Notes: generated by a model from the sequence alone, not told the origin. A stretch of DNA of 64,000 bases from Brevundimonas sp. (GCF_965279155.1 NZ_OZ257138.1:313210-377209), one strand, 5' to 3'. Positions 5,341 through 15,323 are shown, counted from the first letter of the stretch. Translations and numbers: made by a program.

Positions 5341-7244
5341 TGCGCCGGGGCGGCGGGCGTCGCGTCGGCCGAAAGTCCCAGGGCCGAACGGGCCTGAACC
5401 GGGTCGTTCTTGGCCTTGGAGCGCTGGGCGCCGGCGGCGAAGGACGTCTCGACCATGGCCTGGACCAGTTCCTGCGTCAGGCGCGGACGAACCTGTTCGG
5501 CCAGCGGCCCTGCCACGGCGGGACTGGCGGCAAGAACGTTGTCCACGCGACCAACGACATAGGCGGTCTGCGACGCCGGTTGCGAGAAGGCCTGGCCCTT
5601 GGACTGGCCGAACAGACCTTGCAGCACGCCCTGACCCAGAGCGTCCTGCGTCGCCTGGTTGCGGACGACGCCGGTGCGGACCGTCAGGGGCGCATTGACC
5701 GAGCGGGCGACGGCGGCGATGTCCTCGCCGTTGCGGACGCGGGTGGTCAGTTCTTCCGCCTTGGTCGAAAGACGACGCATCGTCTCGCGCTGGATCCATT
5801 GGGCCGTCAGGGGCTCGCGCACCTCGGCCAAGGTCGGCAGGGCCGACGGACGGATGTCGTTCACGCGCACGGCAAAATACTGGCCCTGGCCGGCGTCGAT
5901 CACGTCGCTTTCGCCGCCCTTGGTAAGACCCCAGGCCGTCTCGAAGATTTGCGGCGGGGCGTTCAGCGCCTGCGCGTTCGGCAGCTTGCCGTCGCGGGTG
6001 AAGGGCGGCAGATCGACCACGCGGCCGCCGGCTTCGCGGGCGGCGTCGGCCAGGTTCTTGCCGGCCGTGCGAGCGGCTTCGTATTTCTCGACCTTGGCGT
6101 AGGTCTGGGTCTTCACGTCTTCGGCGCGCAGTTCCTGGATCAGTTCTTCACGTGCGCTCTCCAGCGTCGCAGGCGCAGCGGGCTGGATGGCGGTGACCTT
6201 GGCCACCGCGAAGCCGACGCCGGCCTGGACCGGGTCGGAAACCTGGTTGGCTTGCAGGCCGAAGACGGCGCCGGCCGTCGCGGCGTCGCCGATGGCCGAG
6301 CGCGGCGTGGCGTCGAAGGTCGCGGGCGTGACGTTGTTGGCGCGGCCGGCGTCGGCCGGCGACTGGCCGGCGCGCAGGGCGGCGGCGATTTTCTGGGCCG
6401 TTTCGCGGTTCGGCGCCGTCAGAGTGACGAAGGTGCGGGTCTCGGGCTTGCCCAGAGTGTCCTTCTTGAACTCGAAACGCTCGCGGATGCGGTCATCCGT
6501 GATCGGCGTCGCGGCCGAGGCTTCAGGCGTGAACAGGACGACGGAGACCATGCGGAACTCCGGCGCACGCAGACGTTCGGCGTTTTCCTGGATGAAGGCG
6601 TTCAGCTGGGCGTCGGTGGGAGCAGGGACCTGGCCCGCCATAGCAGACGTGACCTCGAACCAACGACCGTCGCGGCTTTCGAAGGCCGAGCCGGCCAGCA
6701 GGGCGCCATAGATGCGCGGCACGCGGGCGCCGGCGAAGACGGCGGCGCCGAAATGTTCGGTGACGTATTGGTCGCGCAGGTCCTGTTCCAGCATGGCCGG
6801 TGTCAGGTTCTGTTGGGCCAGGGCGGCCTCATAGGCCTGCTGGTCGAACTGGCCGGTGACCGAGTTGAAGAAGGCCGGGATCTGGCGGATCTGCTTGACG
6901 ATCAGTTCCTTGCCGGGGCGGATGCCCGCCTTCCAAGCCCAGTTCAGGAAGCCCAGCTGCTGGGTCTGCTCGGTCAGGAACCGGGTATGGATGTTCTCCG
7001 CGACCAATTCCTCGTTGGTTAGAGGACGGCCGACCTGCTGTTGCAGGCGTTCACGCACCTGATCGAAGGCCGTGCGGAACTCCAGCTCGTTCATCGAACG
7101 GTCGCCCGCATCGATGACGTGCTTGGGACCCAGGTTCGAGAACACGTCCATCCGCGCGCCGACGATCACGAAGCTGATCGCGATCAGGACAAGTAGGGCG
7201 GCCGCCCATTTGGATCGAGAGAAGGCGCGGAAGGCGGTGAGCAT
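5337..7244 (-). CDS. ppiD: SurA-N/PpiD-type periplasmic folding chaperone
   Basis: N-terminal membrane anchor, SurA-like domain, rotamase-like region; typical tpiA-ppiD-trpE context. Confidence 0.8.
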   Translation of the reverse strand: MLTAFRAFSRSKWAAALLVLIAISFVIVGARMDVFSNLGPKHVIDAGDRSMNELEFRTAFDQVRERLQQQVGRPLTNEELVAENIHTRFLTEQTQQLGFLNWAWKAGIRPGKELIVKQIRQIPAFFNSVTGQFDQQAYEAALAQQNLTPAMLEQDLRDQYVTEHFGAAVFAGARVPRIYGALLAGSAFESRDGRWFEVTSAMAGQVPAPTDAQLNAFIQENAERLRAPEFRMVSVVLFTPEASAATPITDDRIRERFEFKKDTLGKPETRTFVTLTAPNRETAQKIAAALRAGQSPADAGRANNVTPATFDATPRSAIGDAATAGAVFGLQANQVSDPVQAGVGFAVAKVTAIQPAAPATLESAREELIQELRAEDVKTQTYAKVEKYEAARTAGKNLADAAREAGGRVVDLPPFTRDGKLPNAQALNAPPQIFETAWGLTKGGESDVIDAGQGQYFAVRVNDIRPSALPTLAEVREPLTAQWIQRETMRRLSTKAEELTTRVRNGEDIAAVARSVNAPLTVRTGVVRNQATQDALGQGVLQGLFGQSKGQAFSQPASQTAYVVGRVDNVLAASPAVAGPLAEQVRPRLTQELVQAMVETSFAAGAQRSKAKNDPVQARSALGLSADATPAAPAQ

Positions 7245-7395
7245 TCGAAAACCCGAGACTGGCCGAGATTGGGGCCGATGTTGGCGTCAGTGGTCGCGTA
7301 TAGTCGGGCCGGGCACGCTGCTGCAAGGACGGCTTCGTGTCGGATTGCGGCGCGGCCCCTTGGCTTCGCGGTTTTCGCCTTCTAGACAGGCGGCC

Positions 7396-8148
7396 ATGAA
7401 ACAATCCGTGAAGTTGATCGTCGGCAATTGGAAGATGAACGGCCTATCGGCCGCCCTGGCGCAGGCTGAATCGATAAGGGATGCCGTCAGCACAGCGGGG
7501 CAGGGCCCTAGGGTCGTCCTGTGCCCGCCCGCCACCCTGATCGACCGGATGCGTGCGGCGCTGGCGGGCAGCGGCGTCGCCGTGGGCGGTCAGGACTGCC
7601 ATGAGAAGCCGGTCGGCGCCTTCACTGGATCGGTGTCGGCGGAAATGCTTGCCGATGCGGGGGCGACCATCGTGATTCTGGGACATTCGGAGCGCCGCGC
7701 CGCCTTTGGCGAAACCGATGCGGATGTCGCAGCCAAGGTCGAGGCGGCGATCGCTGCGGGGCTGGAGCCCATCGTCTGCGTCGGTGAAACGCTGGAGCAA
7801 CGCGAGGCAGGCGACGCCATCGCCGTGGTTTCCGCCCATGTCGAGGGTTCATTGCCGATGGGCCTGTCCGAGCGCGACTTCGCCGTGGCCTATGAGCCGG
7901 TATGGGCCATCGGAACCGGCCTGACACCGACGCTGAAACAGATCGCCGAGGTCCATGCCGCCATCCGTGCGGCCATGATCAAGCGGTTGGGCGAGAGCGC
8001 GCGGACCGCGCCAATCCTGTACGGCGGTTCGGTGAAGCCCGAGAACGCCCGGGACATTCTGGCCACGTCGGAAGTCGGCGGCGCCCTAGTGGGCGGGGCG
8101 TCGCTGAAGGCCGAAGATTTCATGCCCATCGTCAAAGCGGCCGCCTGA
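7396..8148 (+). CDS. tpiA: Triosephosphate isomerase
   Basis: GNWKMNG, GAFTG, GHSERR, AYEPVWAIGTG, LYGGSV, LVGGASL. Confidence 0.97.
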   Translation: MKQSVKLIVGNWKMNGLSAALAQAESIRDAVSTAGQGPRVVLCPPATLIDRMRAALAGSGVAVGGQDCHEKPVGAFTGSVSAEMLADAGATIVILGHSERRAAFGETDADVAAKVEAAIAAGLEPIVCVGETLEQREAGDAIAVVSAHVEGSLPMGLSERDFAVAYEPVWAIGTGLTPTLKQIAEVHAAIRAAMIKRLGESARTAPILYGGSVKPENARDILATSEVGGALVGGASLKAEDFMPIVKAAA

Positions 8149-8212
8149 CGTTTGCTCCGGGCCGGCTTCGATGATAGAGGCCGCCGCTTGATCGGCGCAG
8201 ATCCGCGCCCAC

Positions 8213-8638
8213 ATGAATGACGCCATGCTCCAGACCATTCTGCTCGTCGCCATCATCATCATCGCCGTGTCCCTGACGGGCGTGGTGCTGCTTCAACGTT
8301 CCGAGGGCGGCGCCCTGGGCATGGGCGGCGGACCGTCGGGCTTCATGACGGCGCGCGGCGCAGGCAACCTTCTGACCAAGGTGACCTGGATCTTGGCCTT
8401 CCTGCTGTTCGGCCTGACCATCGTCCTGACCGTCGTCGGCAACATGGACCGCGCTTCGGTCTCGGTGATCGACGCCGACGCCGTCGGCTCGCTGGCCACC
8501 ACGCCGCAGACGCAGCAGCAGGCGCCCGCCCAGCAACAGCCCGCCGCTCCGGCCCAGCCTACGGCTCCGTCGCTGGACGATCTGGAAGCCAGCCTGCCGT
8601 CGGCGACGACGGCGCCGGCCCAGCAGCCCGCCCAGTAA
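8213..8638 (+). CDS. secG: Preprotein translocase subunit SecG
   Basis: VLLQRSEGGALGMGG, RGAGNLLTKVT; between tpiA and pyrG. Confidence 0.93.
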   Translation: MNDAMLQTILLVAIIIIAVSLTGVVLLQRSEGGALGMGGGPSGFMTARGAGNLLTKVTWILAFLLFGLTIVLTVVGNMDRASVSVIDADAVGSLATTPQTQQQAPAQQQPAAPAQPTAPSLDDLEASLPSATTAPAQQPAQ

Positions 8639-8664
8639 CGGTCAGACCAACGATCCGACTTCCC

Positions 8665-8697
8665 GAAAGCGCGCCGCAGGGCGCGCTTTCTTCTTTT
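8665..8697 (+). terminator. Intrinsic terminator after secG
   Basis: gaaagcgcgcc-gca-gggcgcgctttc stem followed by ttctttt. Confidence 0.75.
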
Positions 8698-8699
8698 GA

Positions 8700-10415
<1,716 letters not shown>

Positions 10416-10675: not shown

Positions 10676-12040
10676 TCAGTCGATCTTCAGCCGCATGAAG
10701 ATCATCGCCCCGTCAGGATCGCCGCCATAAAGCGGCTCCAGCGCTGTCGGCACACGGTTCATTGCATAGAGACCGCCTAGACCGAACCGGACGTGTTCGG
10801 CGATCCGCCAGTCACGCACCACGCCAACCGACGCCTTGCCAACCGTGTAGAGCGGGCCGTGTCCGCCGCCGACGCCGGGAACCAATTCGTCCGTCTCGAT
10901 TCGTTCGGCGCGGGCGAAGACGGTCCAGCGATCGTTCGGGTGGACGGCGGATTCCAGCAGCCAGCCGTCTTTCGACTCGTCATGATCATTGGTCTTTCGA
11001 CCCCAGGCCAAGGTCGAGGACCACCAGCCGGTCTCGCCTAGCCGTCGGGTATGGATGGCGCTGGCCGACCATTTGGTCTCGTCCTCGTCCGGCTCCAGCT
11101 GTTCCGGTACGGAGACATCGGCGTAGGAGGCCTGGAGCGACCATTCGTCGGTGGGATTCCAAGCCGCCCGCACGGACCAGCTGTCCAGCCGTGGTGAATC
11201 GATGCCCCAACGTTCCTCGTCCGGTTCGCGTCCCTTGAAGGCCGAGGTCTCGATCTTGAACCGATCATGCGCCCAGCCCAGGGTCGTCACGCCGAAGATG
11301 ATATGGGTCGAGTCCAGCCAGTGGTGGGTGATCGGCGCCTCGGGACTGTCCATGGCGCTCATGCGGTGCATGAAGGCGGGGGGGCCAAAGGCGGGCTCGC
11401 CAGGCAGGCCGATGTAGCCATAGATGCTGTCCTTGTCCGACAGGCGCTTCGAATAGCTGGCCGACAGCTCCATGAAGAGGTCGTGCGGATGCTGGCGATC
11501 GACCAGCGGACTGACCCCGTCCGCCGTCTCGCCCGCCGCCAGAAGCAGCGGATAGCCGGACTTGCCCATCAGGGGATCGGGGCTGAGCATGGCGCGCAGG
11601 TTCAGCGTCGAACCGTCGTCGAAATCGCGCCGCGCCGAGGTCATCAGCATGCCGGCGACGAAGGTCTTGTCGCCGCCGCGTGGCCCGGACTGGGTGTCGT
11701 AGACCAGGTTCAGCATGGCATGGGTCATCACCATCCAGTCGCCCCTGACGGTATGGATGCCGCCATGTTCGCCGGCGTCGGGTTGCCAGCCGGTGCCCGA
11801 GGCGTCGCGGCTCATGGGCCATGGGCCATAGGGGCTGGTCATCGCATGACCCATGTTGGCGTGATCAACTGGCGTCGCATCTGACATCGGCATGGGCATG
11901 TCGTGGCCGGCGTGCGGGTCCGCCGACGGTGCGGTCGTGGTTGGTTGAGCGTGCTGGGAATGATCCTGCGCCGCCGCAGCCTGAGCCAGGGCGAGCAGGG
12001 ATACGCCGGCGCAGGCGCCGACGAGGATACGGATAGCCAT
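10676..12040 (-). CDS. Exported His/Met-rich protein, probable outer-membrane beta-barrel (metal-related, uncharacterised)
   Basis: Signal peptide ending AAAAQ; DHSQH/HAGHDMPMPM/HANMGHAM; HPHDLFMEL, HHWLDSTH; C-terminal alternating aromatic/hydrophobic strands; GGAGG RBS. Confidence 0.75.
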   Translation of the reverse strand: MAIRILVGACAGVSLLALAQAAAAQDHSQHAQPTTTAPSADPHAGHDMPMPMSDATPVDHANMGHAMTSPYGPWPMSRDASGTGWQPDAGEHGGIHTVRGDWMVMTHAMLNLVYDTQSGPRGGDKTFVAGMLMTSARRDFDDGSTLNLRAMLSPDPLMGKSGYPLLLAAGETADGVSPLVDRQHPHDLFMELSASYSKRLSDKDSIYGYIGLPGEPAFGPPAFMHRMSAMDSPEAPITHHWLDSTHIIFGVTTLGWAHDRFKIETSAFKGREPDEERWGIDSPRLDSWSVRAAWNPTDEWSLQASYADVSVPEQLEPDEDETKWSASAIHTRRLGETGWWSSTLAWGRKTNDHDESKDGWLLESAVHPNDRWTVFARAERIETDELVPGVGGGHGPLYTVGKASVGVVRDWRIAEHVRFGLGGLYAMNRVPTALEPLYGGDPDGAMIFMRLKID

Positions 12041-12046
12041 TCAAGG

Positions 12047-12112
12047 CCTCCTCTAATGATCGTGACAGATTTCGCCTGCGAGAGGCGCGAGCGGTGTCAG
12101 ACGATCAGGAGG
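12047..12112 (-). promoter_or_regulatory. Predicted mRNA hairpin sequestering the downstream Shine-Dalgarno
   Basis: On the - strand CCTCC-TGATCGT (codons R-L-L-I-V of the leader ORF) is complementary to ACGATCA-ttaga-GGAGG before the next ATG. Confidence 0.7.
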
Positions 12113-12420
12113 CGGGGCGGGCCGGGCTCGGGCGACAAAAGCCGACCAGCAGGCATGTCGATCAACACGGCGGCGAGACGCGCGGGTGAAACCTTCAAGC
12201 CGGACAGGGGCGCGGGATCCAGTGTCGGCGTCGCCACGCAGGCGACGCAGCAGATCATCGCCTTCATGGCCTTGGGGGCGTGACTGGGGGCCTCTTCCGG
12301 CATGGGTTGGCCTGTTTCATGACAGGGCGCGGCGGCAGGCGACGCGGACGCGCCGACCGTGCCGAGCGCCAGCACCGCCAGGGCGCCGATCAGCAGCAAC
12401 AGGGATTGAAGGATTTTCAC
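12097..12420 (-). CDS. CutF/CruR (DUF2946)-like metal-responsive leader peptide
   Basis: Sec signal peptide, CHE...M and CCVAC Cys motif, C-terminal PEPGPPR; 56 nt upstream of a metal-motif gene. Confidence 0.7.
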   Translation of the reverse strand: MKILQSLLLLIGALAVLALGTVGASASPAAAPCHETGQPMPEEAPSHAPKAMKAMICCVACVATPTLDPAPLSGLKVSPARLAAVLIDMPAGRLLSPEPGPPRLLIV

Positions 12421-12459
12421 CGCGTCAGGATAGGCGTCGGGGCGATGCGTCGCAATGCG

Positions 12460-13026
12460 TCAACGGGTCGGCTTCTTGTCCACCAGCGGCAGACCAGGCG
12501 CGTCGGGTGCGACCGAACCCCCTTGGCCCAGCGCCCGCTGCATGAAGACGACATCGCGCCAGTCGTCATGCTTCCATCCTGCCGCCTTGAACACGCCCGC
12601 GTCGGTGAAGCCGCGCGTGCGATGCAGGGCGATGGAGCCTGTGTTCTCGGAATCGCCGATCACCGCCACCATCTGACGAAGCCCCATCGCCTCGCAGCGC
12701 GCGATCAGCGCATCGAGAAGGGCGCCGGCGACGCCGCGTCCCCTGGCCCAGGGCGCGACATAGATCGAGTCCTCGACCATGTAGCGATAGGCCTGACGGG
12801 TTCGAAACGGGCCGGCATAGGCGTAGCCGGCGACCGCGCCGTCGATCTCGACCACAAGTCGCGGCAGGCCGAGAGCTTCGACCCCGGCTAGCCGGGACGC
12901 CATTTCGATCTCGTCAGGCGCCTCCAGCTCGAAGGTGCCGCGACCATTGGCGACGCTCTCGGCATAGATGGCCGTTATAGCGGCGATGTCGTCAGGACGG
13001 GCGTCGCGAACCGTCGGTGCGCTCAC
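12460..13026 (-). CDS. GNAT N-acetyltransferase (phosphinothricin/YncA-like)
   Basis: VRDARPDD...IYAESV, GYAYAGPFR, VEDSIYV, RGRGVAGALL, SIALH; GTG start overlaps ptrB stop. Confidence 0.85.
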   Translation of the reverse strand: MSAPTVRDARPDDIAAITAIYAESVANGRGTFELEAPDEIEMASRLAGVEALGLPRLVVEIDGAVAGYAYAGPFRTRQAYRYMVEDSIYVAPWARGRGVAGALLDALIARCEAMGLRQMVAVIGDSENTGSIALHRTRGFTDAGVFKAAGWKHDDWRDVVFMQRALGQGGSVAPDAPGLPLVDKKPTR

Positions 13027-15242
13027 GCCTTCTCCCAGCCCTTGTCGATGGCCCAGACGGCGAAGGCGTAGTCGTGGGCGACTTCCTTCAGATAGTCGAA
13101 CCGGCCGGCGGCGCCGCCATGACCCGCTTCCATATTGATCTTCAGCAGCACCGGCTTGCCCGAGGTGGTCGCGGGTCGCAGCTTGGCGACCCACTTCTCC
13201 GGCTCCCAGTAGGTGACCCGCGGATCAGACAGGCCGCCGGTGGCCAGCACCGCCGGATAGGCCTTGGCCTCGACCTGATCGTAGGGACTGTAGCTGAGCA
13301 TATAATCGTAGGCCGCCGGATCCTCGATGGGATTGCCCCATTCAGGCCATTCCGGCGGCGTCAGCGGCAGTGAGGTGTCGCTCATCGTGTTGATGACGTC
13401 GACGAACGGCACCTGACCGATGATTCCGGCCCACAGGTCGGGCCGCATGTTGTTGACGGCCCCCATCAAGAGGCCGCCCGCCGATCCGCCCTGGGCGACG
13501 ATGTTTCCGGTCGCGGCGTATTTGCGGTCGATCAGATGTTCGGCGGCGGCGATGAAGTCGGTGAAAGTGTTCTTCTTCGTCATCTTCCTCGCATCGAGGA
13601 ACCAGCCCCAGCCCTTGTCGGACCCGCCACGAATGTGGGCGATGGCGTAGATCCAGCCACGATCAACCAGCGAGAGCCGATTGGTCGAGAAGCTGGCCGG
13701 CATGGGGATTCCGTACGAGCCGTAGCCATAGAGCAGCAGCGGTGCGGAGCCATCGACCGGCGTCGATTTGCGACGCAACACCGTGACTGGCACCAGTTGT
13801 CCGTCCGAAGCGGGGGCGTTCAGCCGCTCGACGACATAGTCCGCGATGTTGTGGCCAGACGGAATCTCCTGCGTCTTGCGCAGCGTCCGCTCGCGCGTCG
13901 CCATGTCGTAGTCGAAGGTCTGGGTCGGAGTTGACGGCGAGTTGTAGGCGTAGCGAGTGTTCGTCGTCTCGAACTCGGATGCGCCGGCCAGCGACAGGGC
14001 GAAGGCGGGTTCGTCGACGGCGATCTCGTGCTCCTCGCCGGCGCGGTCGCGGATGATGATGCGCGTGTTGGCGTCGGCGCGTTCCTGGCGCGCCAGGTGG
14101 TCGTTGGTCAGATCCAGGCCTTCGATGAAACGACCGGGCGTGTGCGGGACCAGGTCGGTCCAGTTCGCCTTCGACGGCGTCGCCGTCGGAGCCTGAACGA
14201 TCTTGAAGTCGATGGCGTCGTCGGCGTTGGTGCGGATCACCCAGCGGTCGCCCCAGTGATCGGCGTCATAGCGAATGGCGACCACGCGCGGCTCCAGCAC
14301 CACGGGTTCGGCCATCGGCGTGGCGGCGGGGATATAGCGCGCCTCGGACGTTTCCTGGTTCTGGATGCCGATGACGATGAATTGATCGTCGGCCGTGCGT
14401 CCGACGCCGATGAACATGCCGTCGTCGGCCTCTTCATAGACCAGGGTGGTTTCGCCGCCGCGAGCCGGGCGACGGAAGATCTTGTCGGGGCGGCCGTTGT
14501 CGTCGCGATTGGTCCAGAAGATCCACTGGCTGTCGGGAGAGAAGACGAAGTCGCCGGTGGCGCTGTCGATCACGGCGGGCAGGACTTCGCCGGTCGCCAG
14601 ATCCTTGACGTATATCTTGTGGACCTCGGAACCCTGCGCATCCTCGGAATAGGCGAACAGGCTGTGATCCGGGCTGTGGCTCGCGGCCGAGACTTCGGAA
14701 TAGGCCTTGCCCTGGGCCAGTTCGTTGGCGTCCAGCAGCAGTTGGGGCGTGGGGGCCATGACGAAGTTTTTCGTCACCGGCTGACCATCGACCATCCACG
14801 TGCCCTGGCGTTCGACGCGCATGTAACGGGGATGCTGATCGCCCGTCTGGTATTCGACGTAGTAGTTCCAGCCGCCGTCCGGGGCCGGAACCGAGCTGTC
14901 GTCCTCTTTGATGCGGCCTCGCATCTCGGTGAACATCGTCTGCTGCAGGGGCAGGGTGGAGGCCATCATGGCCTCGCGATAGGCGTTTTCGGCCGTCAGA
15001 TGCTCCTTGACCTCGGCCTTGATCAGGGTCGGATCGCGCAGCACGGCCTGCCAGTTATCGTCCTTCATCCACTGATAGTCGTCGGTCCGGGTGCGGCCCA
15101 GCTGCTCGGTGACGACGGGAATCTTCTTGGCGACGGGCGGTTGAGGCATGGGAGATCCGGTGGACTGGCGGGCGAGCGCGGGGGAGGCCGAGGCGGCAAG
15201 CGCCGTCGCAGCGGTGGACATTATCAATTGCCGACGATTCAT
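13023..15242 (-). CDS. ptrB: Oligopeptidase B (S9A) with Tat-type signal peptide
   Basis: MNRRQLIMS signal; DDYQWMKD, LYGYGSYG, GGSAGGLLMGA catalytic Ser, DPRV, GHGG. Confidence 0.92.
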   Translation of the reverse strand: MNRRQLIMSTAATALAASASPALARQSTGSPMPQPPVAKKIPVVTEQLGRTRTDDYQWMKDDNWQAVLRDPTLIKAEVKEHLTAENAYREAMMASTLPLQQTMFTEMRGRIKEDDSSVPAPDGGWNYYVEYQTGDQHPRYMRVERQGTWMVDGQPVTKNFVMAPTPQLLLDANELAQGKAYSEVSAASHSPDHSLFAYSEDAQGSEVHKIYVKDLATGEVLPAVIDSATGDFVFSPDSQWIFWTNRDDNGRPDKIFRRPARGGETTLVYEEADDGMFIGVGRTADDQFIVIGIQNQETSEARYIPAATPMAEPVVLEPRVVAIRYDADHWGDRWVIRTNADDAIDFKIVQAPTATPSKANWTDLVPHTPGRFIEGLDLTNDHLARQERADANTRIIIRDRAGEEHEIAVDEPAFALSLAGASEFETTNTRYAYNSPSTPTQTFDYDMATRERTLRKTQEIPSGHNIADYVVERLNAPASDGQLVPVTVLRRKSTPVDGSAPLLLYGYGSYGIPMPASFSTNRLSLVDRGWIYAIAHIRGGSDKGWGWFLDARKMTKKNTFTDFIAAAEHLIDRKYAATGNIVAQGGSAGGLLMGAVNNMRPDLWAGIIGQVPFVDVINTMSDTSLPLTPPEWPEWGNPIEDPAAYDYMLSYSPYDQVEAKAYPAVLATGGLSDPRVTYWEPEKWVAKLRPATTSGKPVLLKINMEAGHGGAAGRFDYLKEVAHDYAFAVWAIDKGWEKA

Positions 15243-15323
15243 CGGTCGCTCCCCTGGATAGTCGAAGGGCCGAGTTTGGGCGCGGCGGGCGGCGAACGTC
15301 AAATGAAGAAAAGCAGCGACCCG

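Follow-up and report, generated by a model that had tools for sequence, protein, structure and literature searches.

Analysis of a 64,000-nucleotide (nt) stretch of Brevundimonas sp. DNA (GCF_965279155.1 NZ_OZ257138.1:313210-377209), referred to here as the window, reveals a locus in which a short leader open reading frame (ORF) precedes a gene for an outer-membrane protein of porin fold, and in which the final codons of the leader are complementary to the Shine-Dalgarno (SD) sequence of the porin gene. We think it probable that the two genes form a translational switch like that of CutF, controlling the porin in response to periplasmic copper. The mechanism is already published, for CutF, and the target is new and unannotated. 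In CutF-type sensing a nascent exported peptide reports periplasmic copper to its own ribosome, and to our knowledge this has been demonstrated experimentally for one operon only. A preliminary description of the window had pointed to a 107-amino-acid (aa) ORF with a signal peptide, Cys motifs and a PEPGPPR sequence, and to the complementarity of its last codons with the ribosome binding site of the next gene; the former is confirmed by the ORF list, inspection and alignments, and the latter by the minimum-free-energy (MFE) fold and comparative pairing. The features of the locus are listed here, with the evidence for each in parentheses.

12097-12420 (-): leader ORF, 107 aa, GTG start, TGA stop at 12097-12099 (ORF list, homologues, family alignments)
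12343-12420 (-): candidate Sec signal peptide, approximately residues 1-26, with cleavage near ASA/S (inspection)
12316-12330 (-): A-P-C33-H34-E35 motif, a candidate periplasm-exposed metal ligand pair (alignments A1, A2 and A6)
12238-12252 (-): C57-C58-V-A-C61 motif (conservation in alignments A1, A2 and A6)
12112-12132 (-): candidate arrest motif P97-E-P-G-P101-P102-R103 (conservation; likeness to CutF)
12095-12113 (-): 5′ arm of the masking stem, comprising the anti-SD GCCUCC (12108-12113), UGAUCGU (12101-12107) and GACA (12095-12098) (MFE fold, conservation)
12073-12087 (-): apical GC-rich hairpin CGCCU-cucgc-AGGCG, nested in the masking stem (MFE fold, compensatory changes)
12046-12067 (-): 3′ arm of the masking stem, comprising UGUC, ACGAUCA, the bulge UUAGA and the SD GGAGG (12047-12051) plus C46 (fold, pairing probability)
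10676-12040 (-): downstream porin-fold gene, 454 aa, ATG at 12040 (ORF list, homologues, AlphaFold model)

The leader peptide and the stem at the porin start

The translation of the leader is MKILQSLLLLIGALAVLALGTVGASASPAAAPCHETGQPMPEEAPSHAPKAMKAMICCVACVATPTLDPAPLSGLKVSPARLAAVLIDMPAGRLLSPEPGPPRLLIV (107 aa). By inspection it has the hallmarks of a signal peptide (K2, the hydrophobic core LLLLIGALAVLALG and ASA-S), and within the core G12, A13, L14, V16, L17, L19 and G20 are invariant in alignment A1. There are several conserved features in the remainder of the peptide. First, C33 is invariant in A1, in A2 and in A6, which combines the family with relatives from copper clusters, and H34 is conserved to at least 90% in A1 and A2. 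Second, C57, C58 and C61 are invariant or at least 90% conserved in all three alignments, and the motif that they form can be read in two ways, as CxxxC (like C69xxxC73 of CutF) or as CxxC. Third, the candidate arrest motif is very close to the end of the peptide, R103 being followed by LLIV and the stop codon, with P101 and P102 located six and five residues from the C-terminus; C61 is 46 residues from the C-terminus. Finally, A6 shows no variation at C33, C57, C58, G92, R93, P97, P101, P102 and R103, and P102 is likewise unchanged throughout A1 and A2.

The last codons of the leader are CGC CUC CUG AUC GUC UGA (12114-12097, minus strand), and GCCUCC-UGAUCGU within them (12113-12101) is complementary to ACGAUCA (12063-12057) and GGAGGC (12051-12046), which are separated by the 5-nt bulge UUAGA. 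The 5′ arm is thus encoded by the codons for R103, L104, L105, I106 and V107 together with the stop codon, which is taken into an additional GACA/UGUC helix, GACA overlapping the stop. The porin ATG is 6 nt 3′ of GGAGG. The MFE fold contains exactly this masking stem, with the apical hairpin in its loop, and the pairing probability of the stem in the window is 0.94; a GC-rich hairpin is present at the equivalent place in other clades. The duplex of the leader tail with the SD arm has an energy of -23.0 kcal/mol, which is matched by 0.8% of dinucleotide shuffles of the 36-nt tail and by 2.2% of shuffles of the 93 nt upstream. By themselves these duplex statistics from the window are suggestive of pairing, and the case rests on other genomes.

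The apical hairpin was also considered as an intrinsic terminator or attenuator, and was rejected because no U-tract follows it.

Conservation of the masking, the leader and its target

Comparison of related loci indicates that the RNA element is conserved as a function and not as a sequence. First, the SD is predicted to pair with the 3′ end of the leader at P > 0.6 in most loci. Second, 24 of 32 adjacent loci have the sequence CCTCC within the final 33 nt of their leader, compared with 3.3% expected from the composition of the loci themselves. Third, the first proline codon of PPR is CCT (giving CCU-CCN) in 13 of the 32 leaders, a codon that accounts for only 5.8% of the proline codons in the porin ORFs. 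Fourth, the anti-SD position varies by clade, lying in the Pro-Pro codons in some, in the Arg-Leu-Leu codons in the window's clade, and beside the stop codon in others; the likeliest partner of the SD is nonetheless located between -6 and +18 nt of the second proline codon in 27 of 33 representatives, a stretch that would be covered, on our estimate of a downstream footprint of about 15 nt, by a ribosome pausing on PPR or the stop codon. Finally, each clade has flanking helices of its own (UGAUCGU/ACGAUCA in the window, and GAAGCUGAA/UUCAGCUUC and CUGAAAG/CUUUCAAG elsewhere), and accordingly cognate duplexes of leader tail and SD arm are stronger than non-cognate ones, with a mean of -18.0 kcal/mol against -15.0 kcal/mol when swapped (p = 5e-5 by permutation among 24 dereplicated representatives).

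The 38 distinct sequences of the window's clade have 92% of their stem cells paired, and double compensatory changes occur solely in the apical hairpin (pairs 42-54 and 44-52). There is hardly any variation at the synonymous sites of R103, L104 and L105 or at the third codon positions of I106 and V/A107, whereas four-fold degenerate sites in other parts of the mature leader have a mean entropy of 1.13 bits (p = 0.004 when three sites are considered, 3.5e-4 with five). These frozen synonymous sites in the stem codons reflect selection on the RNA, and it is because the RNA is under selection that the LLIV tail is kept in the window's clade yet is absent from the wider family.

A word-indexed search identified 64 close homologues of the leader, all from Brevundimonas and all named hypothetical, and when 1.84 billion cluster representatives were searched exhaustively with a profile, only 93 leader-family clusters (50% identity) were obtained. 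The members are about 100 aa long (range 94-155 aa) and have a consensus consisting of a signal peptide, PPCHE, MxCCVACV, about 35 variable residues, GRxPxPEPGPPR, 0-4 residues and a stop codon. CutF-like proteins, of which approximately 5,300 have been catalogued bioinformatically, are recognized by rules that include a length of <150 aa, a signal peptide, a C-terminal PP and a nearby gene on the same strand (PMC9973294). The window leader conforms to all of these, with 107 aa, a signal peptide as judged by inspection, PP within its last 15 residues and a same-strand neighbor 56 nt away, and it also has the central Cys motif about 45 aa from the C-terminus (C57xxxC61, 46 residues). A profile search against DUF2946, among the checks proposed in the preliminary description, gave a near full-length match to the Pfam model (PF11162; E = 0.076), but its score of 14.2 bits is below the gathering threshold of 23.7 bits. 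This is also the situation described by the discoverers of CutF, who found CutF-like proteins to have no Pfam match, with DUF2946 as the nearest model (PMC8456105, PMC9973294). Weak DUF2946 matches are present in 26 of 34 and in 31 of 84 relatives (best E-value 7.8e-5), and a search with the family profile at E <= 10 returned no match carrying a Pfam annotation, and therefore no sequence bridge to annotated DUF2946 proteins. At the level of sequence, these data support classification of the leader as a CutF-like secreted Cys-motif arrest leader.

Two observations concern individual records. In Brevundimonas albigilva (locus L009, 3700-3890) the leader ORF is frameshifted and ends early as ...PPAVF, with GPPRLPIV in another frame, and the downstream anti-SD/SD hairpin is intact despite the frameshift; either the sequence contains an error or the leader was broken recently. 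One leader homologue (P0046) is labeled Pseudomonas sp. ODNR1LW and one porin locus (L015) is labeled as an Afipia felis metagenome-assembled genome (MAG), and both are Brevundimonas-like, pointing to contaminated or wrongly binned source records.

The leader is closely associated with the porin gene. The preliminary description had named, as an outcome contrary to its proposal, a lack of conservation of leader and stem with the downstream gene; a porin homologue is in fact directly downstream of the leader in all 44 evaluable leader-side loci, which are from metagenomes, and even the distant leader P0268 precedes a porin homologue of 48% identity. Sampling from the porin side (80 genome loci from Caulobacterales, Sphingomonadales, Hyphomicrobiales and some Gammaproteobacteria MAGs) shows a family leader upstream of the porin in approximately 45 of about 75 evaluable loci. 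A spacer of 56 nt separates leader and porin in the window, and the corresponding length in most related loci is 44-69 nt.

Between leader and porin, some sphingomonad loci (L030 1222-1600, L046 3566-3870, L047, L064 and L078) contain one more short ORF, whose exported product has many His, Gln and Cys residues (e.g. MKIIVAAFALAIATPAAAQTADHGQHQQQGQHQHQQ...CPCC...). It has its own SD (AGGAG), which pairs with the region of the leader stop codon (CCUGAGA/UCUCAGG).

The preliminary description had supposed that the CutF mechanism acts here on an uncharacterized target. The mechanism is supported as far as computation goes, and the 454-aa target protein has no Pfam or NCBIfam family, no PADLOC match and no PDB sequence match, notwithstanding its more than 8000 homologues. 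An AlphaFold model (predicted local distance difference test [pLDDT] 66.8, predicted template-modeling score 0.69) has about 18 strands, with pLDDT 70-90 in the barrel, and Foldseek aligns it with OmpF, Omp32 and OmpK36 at E ~1e-9 to 1e-10 (best 3e-10), with template-modeling scores of 0.50 by query and 0.65 by target. It therefore has, at the level of fold only, the 16-18-stranded barrel of OmpF/Omp32-type porins. Residues 1-83 are disordered and consist of a signal peptide followed by a His/Met-rich segment at about 25-83 (QDHSQH...HAGHDMPMPM...HANMGHAM). The sequences RQHPHD, FMHRM and THHWLDSTH are invariant in alignment A3, and are found in residues ~182-191 and 223-246, two low-confidence segments of the model whose position is uncertain and which we take to be loops. 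The protein is likened most readily to PcoB/CopB (PF05275; PMC9210255), with which it has in common an outer-membrane beta-barrel, a disordered Met/His-rich N-terminus and a link to copper. It differs in having no match to PF05275 at E <= 1, a larger barrel (~18 predicted strands) and general porins as its closest structures. With its His/Met-rich N-terminus and invariant His clusters, the protein is most likely a metal-selective outer-membrane channel, which would be a functional analogue of PcoB/CopB.

The predicted mature porin begins Q-D-H, with a His at position 3, and is thus similar to an amino-terminal Cu(II)- and Ni(II)-binding motif.

The link to copper comes from more distant relatives of the leader, which a relaxed profile search identified at E 1e-9 to 1e-16. 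Three could be placed on contigs. One is P0268, which precedes the 48%-identical porin homologue, and the other two (L129 and L132, from metagenomes) are in gene clusters with the order Cu P-type ATPase, leader, cusF, multicopper oxidase, copB and cytochrome c; a gene for a CsoR-type repressor is near one of the two. Their leader motifs are CCCDCLGC and PEPDPPRPGTLS, and their intergenic regions are 143-157 nt long, with predicted folds that have no obvious masking of the SD. Judged by sequence, the sensor module is common to the window leader and to the leaders of classical copper-resistance operons, and because it is shared in this way (as in the CutF/CopL arrangement) copper is, by analogy, the most likely ligand.

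A proposed CutF-type switch and its alternatives

The Rhodobacter capsulatus CutF protein, encoded in the cutFOG operon, has 118 aa, a Sec signal peptide, a C69xxHC73 motif 45 residues from the C-terminus and a C-terminal P109EPEGPPPRL118, and a 40-bp intergenic stem-loop masks the cutO SD (PMC8456105, PMC9973294); a change of PPP to PAP abolishes regulation (PMC8456105, PMC9973294, preprint 10.1101/2025.02.05.636593). Set against these published features, the window leader is alike in being a small exported peptide (107 versus 118 aa), in its Sec signal peptide and central CxxxC, in the distance from Cys motif to C-terminus (46 versus 45 residues), in its PEPGPPRL(LIV) ending as compared with PEPEGPPPRL, in its short intergenic region (56 versus 40 nt) with an SD-masking stem-loop, and in scoring below the DUF2946 threshold. 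It differs in its target, which has a porin fold, a Sec signal peptide and an outer-membrane location and is not a multicopper oxidase exported by twin-arginine translocation, in having PPR rather than PPPR along with an extra invariant PCHE and a CC doublet, and in the placement of the anti-SD inside the last codons of the leader, or in sister clades inside the Pro-Pro codons.

Other leaders are less similar. The upstream ORF CruR (Bp2923) of Bordetella pertussis, which encodes a DUF2946 protein, also combines a Cys motif with a proline arrest motif at the C-terminus, the spacing between the two being fixed, and copper relieves its RAPP arrest and triggers Rho-dependent termination (PMC9426467). 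It likewise heads an operon for an outer-membrane transport protein, which in that case is copper-responsive. However, CruR has CXXC and RAPP, a 162-nt intergenic region and Rho-dependent termination, acts as an OFF switch, and is independent of a signal peptide and of EF-P. None of the CruR-type features that were looked for is present in the window, where there is no RAPP (but PPR instead) and the spacer is 56 nt long and structured. The preliminary description had offered both CutF and CruR as precedents for the unfolding of a hairpin; this is correct for CutF, but since CruR works via Rho-dependent termination (PMC9426467), CutF is the only true precedent. The copper-cluster relatives, with their copA-leader-cusF-oxidase-copB arrangement, have the gene order of CopL (Xanthomonas/Stenotrophomonas copLAB; cited in PMC9973294), a likeness that is by gene order only. 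In SecM, VemP and MifM, too, arrest of an exported nascent chain opens an SD-masking stem of the next gene, but these monitor secretion activity and not metal, and their sequences and arrest motifs are unrelated.

By analogy with CutF, the switch would operate as follows. The leader would be translated and exported co-translationally through SecYEG, such that the PCHE and CCVAC motifs would already be in or past the translocon when the ribosome reaches the P-E-P-G-P-P-R codons. Binding of copper (or another thiophilic metal) would weaken the pull on the nascent chain, and the slow Pro-Pro-Arg step would become a prolonged pause. A ribosome paused at PPR or on the stop codon would cover the next ~15 nt, corresponding to the anti-SD arm (GCCUCCUGAUCGU), freeing the porin SD GGAGG so that a second ribosome could initiate on the porin. 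Without metal, the leader would be completed and released quickly, the 16-bp interrupted stem would re-form, and little porin would be translated. Export dependence, metal-induced arrest, the involvement of EF-P and the ON direction are all inferred from CutF. The sequence analysis itself shows the position of the anti-SD within the estimated footprint of a ribosome at PPR, the anatomy of the locus, the conservation of the leader motifs and of the predicted SD masking, and the presence of relatives in copper clusters.

There are several points that weigh against this proposal. The total folding energy is no better than that of shuffled sequences (z = -0.43 and +0.36), but such z-scores are uninformative because the sequence is 68% GC. 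Covariation of the stem, a further check named in the preliminary description, was seen in part: SD masking is kept across clades and leader tails pair better with their own SD arms, but no double compensatory change is present in helices 1-2 of the masking stem within the window's clade, these being conserved rather than covarying, and several members of the clade have single mismatches in the stem. The 5′ arm is coding, and protein constraint could account for part of its conservation. RNAalifold predicts 0 pairs for 30 sequences drawn from all clades; there is no consensus structure across clades because the anti-SD positions are not homologous, and the comparison of cognate with swapped duplexes was used in its place. 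The leader does not reach the DUF2946 threshold, and its arrest motif has two prolines (PPR) where CutF has three, such that a similar arrest or dependence on EF-P would be assumed by analogy. In other genomes a leader can be recognized for only about half of the porin homologues, and the porin therefore does not need leader control. A search for RNA-seq data returned only metagenomic runs with <=11% of sampled words, plus runs of unknown type, none of them usable. Finally, copper induction of a porin is not obviously adaptive, and the polarity could be opposite, as in CruR.

This opposite polarity is the main rival, although we regard it as unlikely. In such a system PPR would arrest by default, keeping the SD open or Rho off, and metal would relieve the arrest; the porin would be made at copper limitation and shut off by copper, and would then be a copper-uptake channel. 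For an influx porin an OFF switch would be physiologically reasonable, CruR of the DUF2946 family provides a case in which copper relieves arrest and the downstream transporter is turned off, and a Fur-family gene is near one homologous locus. But CruR acts with RAPP, signal-peptide independence, a 162-nt intergenic region and Rho-dependent termination, whereas the element here has PPR in a CutF-like PEPxPPRL context, a 56-nt structured spacer and a CutF-like SD-masking stem, and the leader's relatives are in copper-resistance (detoxification) clusters, which are normally copper-induced.

Two further explanations are less likely. Plain translational coupling, with no metal sensing, seems improbable; in that case the leader would be just a secreted small protein that binds copper, or a chaperone, whose synthesis has to accompany that of the porin. 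With the stop codon inside the 5′ arm every terminating ribosome would briefly open the stem, and CutF itself was first proposed to be a chaperone; yet CutF acts only in cis and is rapidly degraded once secreted, and a PxPxPPR that is invariant throughout the family and ends 0 to 4 residues before the stop, together with a constant distance from the Cys motif to the C-terminus, is expected of an arrest sensor and hard to explain for a chaperone. The RNA statistics, too, make such coupling less likely. It is very improbable that the hairpin serves mainly in the stability or processing of the mRNA, or is a GC-rich fold that arose by chance, with complementarity to the SD that is incidental. The cutF-cutO stem-loop was first described as an mRNA-stability element, and the unexceptional total folding energy would fit, but neither accounts for the enrichment of the anti-SD (75% versus 3.3%), the rare CCU at the Pro-Pro site, the advantage of cognate over swapped duplexes or the frozen synonymous sites, and the missing U-tract means that the hairpin is not an intrinsic terminator.

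Returning to the CutF-type switch, we raise as a possibility, and no more firmly than that, a broader reading in which a dual-coded module, at once proline arrest site and anti-SD, controls an unrecognized family of metal-selective porins with a His/Met-rich N-terminal antenna and invariant clusters of His. The Pro-Pro codons CCU CCN are themselves the anti-SD in many clades, and in the window's clade the anti-SD is 5-9 nt downstream, in Arg-Leu-Leu; in both arrangements a paused ribosome would sit on the anti-SD. If so, a nascent-chain sensor of periplasmic copper would tune the copper permeability of the outer membrane, an undescribed level of homeostasis. Apart from this broader reading, the comparative data show masking of the SD by the last codons of the leader to be the conserved core of the device, with its position able to drift as long as it stays beneath the paused ribosome, and the embedding of an anti-SD in or just after proline arrest codons may generalize. 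Compared with the CutF operon, the locus is a clean and minimal case with just two genes, comes from another alphaproteobacterial order and has a different class of target, and it suggests a testable role, copper-regulated passage through the outer membrane, for a large unannotated family. Since the operon contains no other genes, it is also an easy system in which to ask if PPR suffices for metal-dependent arrest.

Neighboring genes and the candidate promoter region of the leader

The leader and porin genes and their upstream neighbors are all on the minus strand of the window, and the porin gene is 99% identical to that of B. intermedia. Upstream of the leader is a gene for a GNAT acetyltransferase of the ArsN1 type (12460-13194, minus strand) and beyond the porin gene is pyrG, which is convergent; with these flanks the leader and porin therefore form a two-gene unit. 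No further CutF-like leader was found elsewhere in the 64,000 nt, and a scan for consensus sigma-70 promoters and terminators identified nothing relevant at the locus. One additional feature precedes the leader.

12428-12455 (-): promoter-like element, TTGCGAC (12449-12455), 13 nt and GCCTATCC (12428-12435) (alignment of 18 diverse loci)

In that alignment the TTG... and CCTA... blocks of this element are at a constant distance from the start codon, and the pair of blocks is also present upstream of the leader at L005-L021, L072, L084, L098, L101 and L119. The element presumably resembles the Caulobacter sigma-73 consensus. Its 3′ end is 7 nt upstream of the leader GTG and the sequence upstream of the leader start contains no SD, and the leader mRNA may be leaderless, with a GTG start in the window's clade.

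From Brevundimonas to Caulobacter the genes keep the order oligopeptidase-B-like peptidase (759 aa), GNAT (ArsN1/phosphinothricin type), leader and porin; the stretch from peptidase to GNAT occupies 12460-15302 (minus strand) in the window, and the same order is seen at L053, L054 and L068. The GNAT stop codon is only 40 nt upstream of the leader start, and overlaps a TTGACG hexamer. On the plus strand, 7072-10415 contains by inspection tpiA (triosephosphate isomerase), secG and pyrG (CTP synthase), and the tpiA ORF as listed is over-extended at its 5′ end.

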